This document shows, one piece after another, positions 24,302 through 31,571 of a DNA stretch of 64,000 bases. The position numbers and the translations under genes were made by a program. Source of the DNA: Squalus acanthias (taxonomy: Eukaryota); assembly GCA_030390025.1 (NCBI GenBank), contig CM059431.1, positions 143,780,001 through 143,844,000 on the forward strand. The letters are read 5' to 3'. Position 1 is the stretch's first letter. Each line of letters opens with the position of its first letter. The notes beneath the pieces are model-generated. The model worked only from the letters and a program-made list of their open reading frames with translations, did no database searches and was not told the origin of the DNA.

Positions 24302-24369
24302 TGATGCGGAGATGCCGGTGTTGGACTGGGGTGGACAAATGTGAGAAGTCGCACAACACCAGGTTATAG
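24302..24369 (-). mobile_element. Fragment of a Penelope-like terminal repeat; target of the Tx1 array
   Basis: GATGCCGGTGTTGGACTGGGGTGGACAAATGTGAGAAGTCGCACAACACCAGGTTATAG continues at 31535 as TCCAACAGTTTTATTTGAAATCACAAGCTTTCGGAGC. I recall this as the antisense of a common shark Penelope-like repeat (AATAAA and CCGAAAGC on the minus strand). Confidence 0.6.
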
Positions 24370-25377
24370 CCTCAGCAGCCAGTAGAAGGAGAGTGAGCAG
24401 CTGAAGCAGCAGCAGCAGAGTGGTGGTCTCTGTGGCCAGGAAGAGGAGAAGGAGAAGGAGACCAGGCAGCAGGCCACCACCAACAACATCCAACAACCAC
24501 AACTACTGAGGTGCCTGGAGAGAGAGGACAGGAGAGGAGAAGGAAAAGAAAGGAAGGACAAGGCCATCAACAACAGAGGAGAGGCCTTTCCACACTGCCT
24601 CCTCAATTGGCCTCCATTTTAGGAGAGGGAGAGAGGGGAGAAAAACATCACCAACAAACATCATCTGTTTGGAAGGAGGGAGGAAGGAAAGAACAACAGC
24701 TACAGGTGGGTGTGATTCTGGGGCACTCTCCCAGAGACTTTGTTTTGTAGGTGGGGGGAGGAAAGAAGAAAAGAAGAGGGCCGGAACATCTAAGGGGTGT
24801 GTGTGTGTGTGTGGCTTCTGTAAAAGCTAGGCCGCACACACCATATTAAACACCCCTTTCCCATTGCCTGACCTGGGACAGCTGGAGCTGCCTAGGTGAA
24901 GTTCCCCAATTAATTTAATCCAATTGGGCATCGTTAAGACCTGGTGCAGGACTGAGCCTGGGCATCTCCAGCTATCCCAGGTGAAGACATCTTCTCCCCC
25001 CACCAGAAGACCACCACCAAAGACTTGTATTACATCGGAGAGTGCACCCCCCTGCCAACACCCACCCACCCACCATCCTGAGTGGCGACCCTGCCCTTGC
25101 GGCTTCCCTCCTTCCCACCCCCCTCTCTCTCTCTCTCTTTGTCTCTTGTCTCTCTCTGCCTCTCTCTCTCTAAGAGGCACCTCATCTATTTTTAATTAAG
25201 TACCCATCGAGCAGAGGGGAGAAGGCCCCTCTCCCAATTCAATCAACTAAAGGGAGAGGTGTGCCTTCAATTTAAGAGCTCCCTCTGCTCGGGGGAAAAC
25301 AAAAAAAAAAACCGAGGCCATTAACACCTTCAGGCCTGTGACTTGGGGTGAGTGTAGCCCTTAAAGAACCCTCCATT

Positions 25378-27529
25378 ATGGCGAGTACATCTTCGTCGGT
25401 GGCGGGGGCAGCGAGGACGTACGCGAGCGTGGCAGCCGCGGCCACGGCCGCAGCCACGAGTCCTCCTGTTACCCCGTCACCTTTTACCCTCCTTACGAGG
25501 AAGAATGGGGTCAAGAGCTACACTCACCCCAACATGACTATAGAGGCGTGCGTTAAAGCCATGGCTGGGGTTGTCGGCCCTTCAGCCATCGTCGCCGCCT
25601 CTAAAATGTACGGCAAGGCTGTGTTCTTCCTGGGGTCGGAGCGGGCGGTGTCCCTGGCCATCGAGAAGGGGCTCACCGTGGGCGGGACCTTCCTGCCGGT
25701 GGACCCCCTTGAGGCCACCGCGCAAAGGATTGTGGTCTCCAACGTCCCGCCCTTTGTTCCGGGTGAGCTCCTCCTCCCCCACCTACGTCAACTGGGGGAG
25801 GTGAGGTCGGGGATCACACCCATCCCGCTCGGCTTCCGGGAAGCCAGCCTTCGGCACGTCTTCTCCTTCCGGCGCCAGCTTTTCGTCCGGCTGGCGCGGG
25901 AGGAGGACGCGGATGGCGCGTTCACGGTGCTCCACGGGGGGACCGCCCACCGCGTCTTCTGGACCTCGGACGGCGCGCGGTGCTACGCCTGTAAGGAGGT
26001 GGGGCACGTCCGCAAAAACTGCCCCGCCTCCAAGGCCGCCACGACACCTGGCGCGGCCGGGGTTGGCGCCGCCGCCCCCCCTCCCCCTGATACTGTCCGC
26101 GCGTCGACGGCGACGGATGCGCGGTCGAAATCGGAGGCCAACGCCACCACGGCCTCCGGCGGGGAGGAGGGAGAGCGTCCGGGGGGAAGGAAGGCGCGTA
26201 GGAAAAATAAACACATAAGGGCGGATCCCCTCGCGGAGGAAACATCTGAATTGGCCAAACTCACGCCCGAGTATATCGCGGAGTTGGTCGGGACGCATGA
26301 GACTGGGGGGGTCCTCGTGCCCGGGCCCGTGACCGCAACCGCCGAGGCGGCTAAATCAAGACCTGCGGCCGGGCTCGGGCCCGAGGGGCCCAAGAAACCC
26401 AGTCGTCGGAAGGGGGCAGAGAGGGAGGCCCCAGCAGACATGGAGGCCTCCCCCTCTCCGGGCCCCAACTTGTTAAAAAGAAAGCTCCGCCCCCAGCAGG
26501 AGGACTGCGAGGAGGAAGGTCCCTCCGCAAAAGGGGGGCAGTCGCCCGCCGCGGGTGCTGCGCCCCACCCCACCACCGTCATCGTCGCGCGCGATCGGCA
26601 GGGGTCGTCTGTCCCTCGGGAGGGTGAGACAGACGAGTCTGTCCGACCTGTGCCTCCCGGGGATGGGGAAGAGACCCTGCCCGTGGGGGGGGGGCGCGGA
26701 ACAACCCGCGGAGGGAAATGTAGTACCGGAACCGTTGCTCCTCGCCGGGTCGGGCGTCCTGGGGACTGGGGCGGGCGAGGCCAAAGAGGCTGAAGCCGAG
26801 CCCGCCTTTTATAACCCAGACATCTCCCAGGGACTGCTCGACCTGGTGGAGGAGTGTAGCAATCCCCAGCCTGCTGGGTCGGAGGTTGGTGGCGGGGAGA
26901 CGGAAAGCCCCCTGACTCCGTCTCTGTTGTTGGCGCCGGACGTGCTGGAGGAATTTGGGATTATTTTCTCCCCGGTTTCTCCGGTCGCCCCGGCGCCTGA
27001 GGCGGGGGGGGGCCCCGAACCGCCGCCGCCGCCTCCCGGCCCGGCGCCCCTGAAGGAGCCCAGGGTGGACTCCTCTGCCACCGATCCTGGGGGTGGGATC
27101 GTGACGGAGGCGGGGCCGGCCGGTGCGGCCGAGCCGTTCGCTGCACCCCGTGCGACGGACGGGTCGGCCGTCGGTGACGACCTCCCGGAGGAGGACGGGG
27201 ACTCGGTGTTGGGCAACGAGGACGATTTGGAGTCCATCGGCAGCGAGGTGATGGACGCCCTCGTGCCCTTCACTGACTCTCCCCTCATCCCCGTAGGGGA
27301 ACTCCGGGATTTTATGGCCGTGAGCCAGGGTCGTCACAAGAAGATCCGGCTGGCCCTCGACAAGTGGTCGGAGCTGACGCTGCTCGTCGTGTCCGTCCGC
27401 GCCGCCGTTAAAATCATGGGCGCGGACAAGGACGTTGACCGGCTCGAGCTGCGTCGGCTCAAGACGTTCCACACTGGGCTGCTGAGGGAGTGGCGGTCGT
27501 CAGTGACCGCCCTCCCTCCCCTCCGTTAG
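25378..27529 (+). pseudogene. Tx1 ORF1 (CCHC knuckle CYACKEVGHVRKNC, long Pro/Ala/Glu-rich tail), +1 frameshift in G-run ~26685-26694
   Basis: AASKMYGKAVFFL, VVSNVPPF and SFRRQ are Tx1 ORF1-like motifs. The run is G10 here and G9 in copies 2 and 3. Confidence 0.85.
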
Positions 27530-31454: not shown

Positions 31455-31518
31455 TTTATTAAGTTTCATTTAAAGTTTTAATTTGATTTACAGTAAATTT
31501 GGGTTCAACCAAAAAGAT

Positions 31519-31571
31519 CAACACCAGGTTATAGTCCAACAGTTTTATTTGAAATCACAAGCTTTCGGAGC
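31519..31571 (+). repeat. 53-bp regenerated target segment at array junctions (also 38696-38748, 45864-45916, 53034-53086, 60181-60233)
   Basis: CAACACCAGGTTATAGTCCAACAG(T/C)TTTATTTGAAATCACAAGCTTT(C/A)GGAGC lies between every pair of copies. Confidence 0.95.

Follow-up and report, generated by a model that had tools for sequence, protein, structure and literature searches.

How does one retrotransposon come to be stacked head to tail inside the terminal repeat of another? The question is raised by a 64,000-nucleotide stretch of the 3.7-Gb genome of the shark Squalus acanthias (G000:C7:143,780,001-143,844,000, referred to here as the window; the labels Lxxx and Cx denote further sites in the same genome), in which a 7.17-kb long interspersed nuclear element (LINE) of the Tx1 clade is repeated in a head-to-tail array from position 24369 onward, with six copies inside the window. 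Throughout the genome this LINE sits almost exclusively in antisense orientation at one position of the pseudo-long terminal repeat (pLTR) of a Penelope-like retroelement, where it makes a 15-bp target-site duplication. The explanation that we hold to be somewhat better than even is that homology at both ends of the LINE RNA aids target-primed reverse transcription at this site, and the junctions of many genomic copies are the material on which that proposal is built.

The choice of site is narrow. Among 534 exact genome matches to a motif of the Tx1 3' untranslated region (UTR), 487 are followed within 4-34 nt by the same 10-nt target, in agreement with an earlier note on this DNA, which had proposed from the letters of the window alone that Tx1 inserts antisense to a repeat. 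The first 100 listed Tx1 3' ends represent 67 loci, and 63 of these (94%) are on target; 92 of the ends were judged by the 10-nt match, and the eight that failed the pattern were inspected individually, three proving to lie in variant pLTRs and five, from four loci, to be off target. A Tx1 family counts as target-specific if more than 20% of its flanks lie in one repeat (PMC4494074); the share here is far higher, and the junction is fixed.

The inserter encodes two proteins. In copy 1 (24369..31518, + strand), which is among the least diverged copies of the array, open reading frame (ORF) 1 (25378..27529, +) with its zinc knuckle is split by one frameshift, and ORF2 (27555..31454, +) is intact at 1299 aa, with an apurinic/apyrimidinic endonuclease (APE), a reverse transcriptase (RT) and a weak zf-RVT domain. 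Pfam matches are Exo_endo_phos (1.7e-11) and RVT_1 (8.5e-38) for ORF2, and zf-CCHC at 21.2 bits (cut-off 20.8) for ORF1. The comparison of ORF2 with catalogued elements that the earlier note had called for places it in the Tx1 clade, with 50% identity over the full length to Tx1L of Xenopus laevis (YTX2_XENLA), the closest catalogued element among the matches. Like the shark element, Tx1L has two ORFs with APE and RT and inserts into another transposon, the non-autonomous piggyBac element Tx1D (PMC4494074). About 900 near-full-length copies exist in the genome; among 81 full-length copies, ORF2 is open in 50 and ORF1 in 30, the copies with open ORF2 that were compared diverge by less than 3%, and pairs of copies differ by 17-170 substitutions. 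By these comparisons the inserter is a young Tx1-clade LINE. Its inserts carry no poly(A), and truncated and off-target copies retain a 14-15-bp duplication and a short CAAC(ACC) core.

The repeat that is hit can be recognized from its copies elsewhere. A 26-mer across the insertion point has 97,107 exact copies in the genome and its reversed control has none, which bears out the claim of a high-copy target; at the loci listed (of 30), the target sequence runs on unbroken except at the present locus and at a Tx1 insertion (L005). Most of the copies that are not interrupted are short insertions; they have an inverted arm and a small duplication, and just one of the arms bears a tail of ~35 nt, all of which have been described as traits of Penelope-like elements (PMC11167929). 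A complete element at G000:C12:69.867-69.877 Mb is composed of a pLTR, a 656-aa RT frame (RVT_1, E 4.6e-9), a single break in that copy, a 209-aa C-terminal frame, and a second pLTR; the two pLTRs are in direct orientation, 3.1 kb apart, and the 3' one contains a full antisense Tx1 copy. The 209-aa part found no match in Pfam or PDB searches; its best Atlas cluster is GIY-YIG (score 0.97, with the family on 23% of the members), and a neighboring ORF with a sub-threshold GIY-YIG match shares 32% identity with it (E 5e-20). Relatives of the Penelope RT carry PF00078, PF28514, PF26215 and, in part, PF01541 (GIY-YIG), and the closest named proteins are from sharks, with identity up to 93%. Judged by its frames and relatives, the target is the pLTR of a GIY-YIG Penelope-like family, and the Penelope-like terminal repeat that the earlier note had named is indeed part of an element with RT, a GIY-YIG-like region and pLTRs. 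The GIY-YIG Penelope-like elements described previously (PMC4209133, PMC11167929) likewise have a single ORF in which RT is joined by a C-terminal GIY-YIG domain, pLTRs ~3.1 kb apart that may be direct or inverted, with an optional tail, and a minimal hammerhead in which one additional nucleotide precedes stem II. The AATAAA pointed out in the earlier note is AATAAA(A/G)C and lies within the pLTR, on the 5' side of the start codon of Penelope. At L073:3769-4452, 1.5 kb upstream of the full element, there is also a fragment of another GIY-YIG Penelope-like family, unrelated to the first.

A minimal type I hammerhead pattern, consisting of a CUGANGA and GAAA core, stems I and II, a palindromic stub of stem III and a UH site, was found in 88 of the 151 pLTR copies read on the Penelope sense strand, many of the non-matching copies being truncated. 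Each of the four letters occurs at N7, variation is also seen in loop II and at the H position, and the core is nearly fixed, with the exception of C at U4 in six variants. In a set of 30 distinct but mutually related variants, hand-picked and chosen by pattern match, 98.1% of the cells of stems I and II pair and 11 cells are changed on both sides, whereas none of 500 shuffles scored as high. The two-sided changes speak for the ribozyme that had been predicted beside the target, and the motif fits the minimal hammerhead of PMC4209133 as far as its sequence pattern goes. The Rfam hammerhead models, by which it was to be checked, gave no match in the window or, at E up to 10, in six pLTR loci, as would be expected for a motif without stem III; miRNA-like Rfam matches on the inverted repeats were dismissed as hairpin artifacts. 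Cofolding of two copies did not produce the canonical hammerhead dimer, and the fold of an 88-nt pLTR stretch had no unusual stability (z 1.17). The Tx1 duplication is placed between the ribozyme and the start codon of Penelope, ~22-36 nt to the 3' side of where cleavage is predicted. The hammerhead belongs to the host Penelope and probably takes no part in Tx1 integration.

At the locus itself, an antisense pLTR piece (24304..24368, - strand) retains the ~35-nt tail, which in full elements is found just before the Penelope start codon, and ends in the 15-bp Tx1 target-site duplication (24354..24368, +), which is repeated at 31519, 38696, 45864, 53034 and 60181. The array comprises at least nine copies and ends at window+85,740, ~21.7 kb past the window and across one assembly gap. 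An 11-bp duplication made by the small Penelope insertion, with its left copy at 24293..24303 (+) and its right copy at window+85,826-85,836, brackets that insertion plus the whole array, spanning the gap. Copy 1 has a 5' end of a type that we call A, without any pLTR-derived sequence. Copy 2 (31534..38695, +, ORF2 frameshifted) starts instead with a captured head of type B (31534..31588, +), in which ~38 nt of antisense pLTR, whose minus strand corresponds to the hammerhead 3' half, is followed by an inverted piece of the hammerhead 5' half that continues into the CAG repeat of the Tx1 5' UTR. No hammerhead was seen by inspection on either strand of the B head, each strand holding one core half only. 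The B head is also present on copy 3 (38711..45863, +), copy 4 (45879..53033, +), copy 5 (53049..60180, +, ORF2 open at 56193-60113) and copy 6 (60196..64000, +), the last of which extends beyond the window.

The captured head changes how the local junction is to be read. The earlier note had joined 24302-24369 to 31535-31571 to restore the interrupted target; the joined sequence is the correct target of the family, but it is not the local empty site, because 31535-31571 is the 5' head of copy 2 and not the rest of the local target. The true downstream flank at window+85,740 differs from the head at two of 28 positions and lacks the GAAA part wholly, and it rules out, at this locus, an origin of the 53-nt spacer that separates copies as a long duplication of the target on the spot. 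Genome-wide, a pLTR-derived head is present at 668 of 902 Tx1 5' motifs (74%), with several recurring linker types. Among 44 copies that are the 3'-most at their sites, 33 are headed, and in 19 of these the head departs from the copy's own flank within 28 nt, in several cases by a whole pLTR subfamily signature. Three heads (L140, L141, C2b) share a rare local variant and, in two of them, donor sequence comes next, which points to a movable crossover within the head. Type-A ends often hold a non-local letter inside the 5' duplication, as in five A-headed copies (L138, L145, L151, L152, L157) whose variant within the 5' duplication is absent from their own 3' flank. Since the headless type-A end is common to sister subfamilies, type A is regarded as ancestral and the heads as derived. 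In contigs of four sequencing runs, two head linker variants occur in the X12 and X17 contigs, a weak hint only; none of the pieces listed bridges the junction. Among the sequencing runs listed, no RNA run held the sequence.

Neighboring copies also resemble each other at their 5' ends more than copies from different loci do. Of the first 100 listed ends, 52 stand in multi-copy clusters, as against ~1% for random site use. Identical heads are carried by 22 of 31 adjacent pairs but by only 35 of 1128 inter-locus pairs. No shared-polymorphism difference precedes nt 500 in 15 of the 31 adjacent pairs, compared with a control (3158 pairs) that rounds to 0.000, and the ratio of neighbor differences is 0.32 below nt 500 and 0.76-0.85 above nt 5000. 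In seven truncated stacks, four of which were fetched on purpose (L211, L212, L213 and the off-target L216) and three of which came from the first 20 matches on C1, the breakpoint is common to all 15 adjacent pairs, although 13 of the pairs differ by 4-79 substitutions; distinct truncations have been read as the sign of independent insertions in tandems of transposable elements (PMC5932611). Stacks are present also at non-pLTR sites and in a sister subfamily, and stacking therefore does not require the head. In two stacks of TACAC-targeting sisters (L195 and L196, G000:C1:66.1 and 68.6 Mb), one truncation point and the local duplication are shared and the 3' UTRs differ. That arrays arrive as multimers made at the donor is ruled out for L195, L196, L216 and C2b, in which the local duplication is present at the internal junctions.

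The mechanism that we favor, with the modest preference stated at the outset, would run in three steps. At a short site of the (C)AAC(AC) type, the APE endonuclease would nick the bottom strand, and the RNA's 3' end, bearing target-like letters and, to judge from the inserts, no poly(A), would pair with the nicked strand. The 3' end of the cDNA would then anneal to top-strand DNA just downstream of the nick, the homology being provided by the captured head at an empty pLTR and by the resident copy at an occupied site, so that the newcomer would adopt the head or truncation point of the resident and end up on its 5' side. Completion would be far more frequent at occupied than at empty sites, by which arrays would grow 5'-ward, and unequal exchange would later duplicate some units. 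The arrays do appear to grow at their 5' side, and the shared heads and truncation points suggest homology-assisted 5' joining; we infer that the RNA begins with target-like sequence. Parts of this scheme have precedents. Pairing of the RNA 3' end with the target has been proposed for SART1 and R1Bm (PMC7265360), and Drosophila R1, also a site-specific APE LINE, makes a 14-bp duplication, forms arrays by insertion into the 5' duplication of the resident, and in some lineages carries target sequence at the 5' end of its RNA (PMC2718515). Unlike the shark element, R1 targets 28S rDNA and takes its extra 5' sequence from upstream of the site (PMC2718515), whereas the shark Tx1 head comes from downstream of the nick and truncation points are common to neighbors.

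Several observations weigh against this mechanism. Fourteen of the 33 heads of 3'-most copies are identical to the local flank over 28 nt, and the 52 clustered ends contain at least one pair on opposite strands. Heads differ in 9 of the 31 adjacent pairs, and at L211 a truncated copy lies 5' of a headed one; inheritance of the head is, therefore, not obligatory. Private changes are most numerous in the last copy in no more than seven of 11 arrays, with one tie and two arrays lacking their last copy. Near-identical units, with 2-9 differences in C2a, C2b, C2c, C5b and C10 and 0-1 in L212 and L216, indicate that duplication or conversion is also at work. R113 versus Q113 in the endonuclease, together with about a dozen sites in the RT and C-terminal regions, is associated with the target to the same degree as the RNA 3' end. 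Finally, both homology steps are inferred from genomic junctions.

The alternative that survives best, which we think has a real although minor chance of being right, is that the target is set by the protein alone, through R113, an endonuclease hairpin loop and C-terminal changes, and that the heads are neutral, co-transcribed relics of a few long-duplication events. The sister subfamilies allow it to be weighed. In the genome, 1,728 matches were counted for a motif from the ORF2 end, and among the first 20 sites on C1 only one is of the pLTR-targeting type; the remaining sites hold relatives, 87-97% identical in DNA, whose last letters mirror other targets, namely dispersed TACAC or CACCACC sites and two repeats that lead into an esterase ORF1, one of them with an APE-RT frame after it. 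The sister Tx1 copies at L205 (G000:C1:7.17 Mb), L208 (C1:85.3 Mb) and L223-L261 are inserted in sense orientation in such 5' UTRs of esterase-ORF1 (Lipase_GDSL_2) LINEs, which we take to be CR1-like from the type of ORF1. Residue 113, which aligns with N118 of L1, is R in 79 of 80 pLTR-targeting copies and Q in all 11 copies with AAG-type ends, which speaks for a protein determinant; R113 is, however, found also in one of three TACA-type copies. The hairpin loop reads S191/R193 in 962 matches and W/G in 211, and none of the W/G-loop copies at 27 loci (24 of them reaching the 3' end) lies in a pLTR. As sole determinant the loop is ruled out by 13 atypical S/R-loop copies, selected because the usual 5' motif is absent from them, of which nine are not in pLTRs; copies of both loop types, moreover, use the CR1-like target. 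The loop is known to affect nicking profiles in L1 endonuclease grafts (PMC1950540). Protein specificity leaves the shared truncation points unexplained, and several recurring linker types at 74% of the 5' ends do not suit a few relic events. Protein and RNA causes are inseparable in these genomic data.

A bolder extension of the homology mechanism, which we offer tentatively and would judge about three times as likely to be wrong as right, is that the target is inherited through the RNA and not mainly through the protein. Through a read-through 3' end and a captured 5' head, the RNA would possess terminal repeats copied from the target; these would guide priming, the cDNA would finish by strand invasion without a second-strand cut, and a nearly unchanged APE-RT would thereby be retargeted among the Penelope pLTR, two CR1 5' UTRs and its own resident copies.

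It is also conceivable, if unlikely, that the arrays and shared breakpoints go back to a single founder, multiplied by tandem duplication or unequal exchange and then altered patchily by gene conversion from other loci, with no repeated insertion at all. Double insertion followed by unequal exchange is a published route to tandems (PMC5932611), and the near-identical units in an ABAB pattern (five differences between units 1 and 3 of C2b, two between units 1 and 3 of C5b, zero in L212 and one in L216) are what it would leave behind. The local array, however, shows another pattern. Its private substitutions, in copy order, number 1, 0, 2, 3, 23, 58, then after the gap 42 and 66, divergence thus increasing toward the 3' end. 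Copy 1 has 13 differences from copies on other contigs and 19 from its neighbor, and all the complete copies except copy 4 (39 versus 40) are nearer to a copy at another locus than to their array mates. The depletion of neighbor differences at the 5' end and the different 3'-terminal types that neighbors bear right up to the junction likewise speak against duplication of a founder.

Rather improbable, in our judgment, is that there is no specificity for Penelope as such and that a short motif is preferred of which the pLTR is merely the commonest carrier. The 9-mer at the insertion site has 156,512 genome matches, of which 97,107 (62%) are exact pLTR copies, and off-target sites retain 5-8 nt of the CAAC(ACC) core with the 14-15-bp duplication. 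At L194:3364, moreover, one copy has entered the pLTR tail at a second AACACC, located on its sense strand, and a later copy is stacked there with a junction of the normal type. Yet abundance alone predicts that ~62-76% of insertions would be in pLTRs (76% if the background is taken from the reversed control), as against the 94% of loci seen, and the full 9-mer is absent from most off-target sites, which makes the real background larger still. Two configurations of insertion sites may be added for the record. At L214 (G000:C6:68.64 Mb), two off-target copies lie in a minisatellite whose repeat unit contains the target-site 9-mer. At G000:C4:43,982,347 (+) and 43,983,271 (-), two Tx1 3' ends point toward one another across 0.9 kb, which is what insertion into both arms of a single inverted Penelope should produce.

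That the array or the heads are artifacts of assembly is very improbable, since, in spite of the 200-N gap in the array (window+70,570-70,769), the many homopolymer frameshifts and an ORF1 broken in all eight complete copies of the local array, the same heads and arrays, with variants specific to each locus, recur on many contigs, 17-170 substitutions separate the copies and the Penelope duplication matches at both sides. Just past the gap (L031, window+70,570-70,870), upstream pLTR letters and a B head open the sequence anew, resembling a separate array start; either a second pLTR or the joining of two haplotypes in the scaffold may account for this.

The remainder of the window contains other repeats. 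Just left of the Penelope insertion, an open 385-aa Harbinger-type transposase frame (21287-22444, +; DDE_Tnp_4, E 1.4e-41) faces a second open frame (23056-23793, -), and the two are possibly a young Harbinger element. Positions 4981-13676 hold blocks of a 61-bp minisatellite, together with a repeated unit of ~2.9 kb that contains CR1/L2-like fragments.

Aiming at other transposons is a known habit of the Tx1 clade, and what appears to be new is the Penelope target. Families directed at piggyBac, Mariner, Harbinger and LTR retrotransposons have been described, such as the crocodilian Tx1-Mar, Tx1-8_Crp, Tx1-4_AMi and Tx1-9_AMi, which prefer mobile elements (Mariner-N4, LTR retrotransposons and Harbinger; PMC4494074). 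No Penelope target is named in the main text of that paper, whose figure and supplements may list more, and no further Tx1 targets, Penelope included, are added by PMC4640811 in the portion available. The open literature searched yielded no Penelope-targeting Tx1, subscription papers, Repbase and Dfam being outside the search. The suggestion that a Tx1 with this target is undescribed accordingly holds for Penelope and does not extend to retroelements in general, a Tx1 aimed at the LTR type being already known (PMC4494074). Tx1L differs in that its target is a DNA transposon, and captured target heads and stacked arrays like those of the shark Tx1 are not seen in the accounts of Tx1L in PMC4494074, as far as that source goes. 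The use of a high-copy retroelement as a target stands as well; the "safe harbor" that had been read into it may be a selected benefit.

Sister subfamilies that are 87-97% identical in DNA and have different targets within one genome constitute a natural experiment on how LINEs choose their sites, and the determinants, endonuclease residues or RNA ends, are testable by single swaps. The ~900 near-full-length copies, many with an open ORF2 (50/81), are material for such tests and for tools of site-specific insertion. The shared breakpoints bear on completion of the 5' junction, the least understood step of LINE integration, and on the origin of transposon tandems. If a target inherited through the RNA should prove true, the shark Tx1 would be a LINE that hunts other retroelements by homology.

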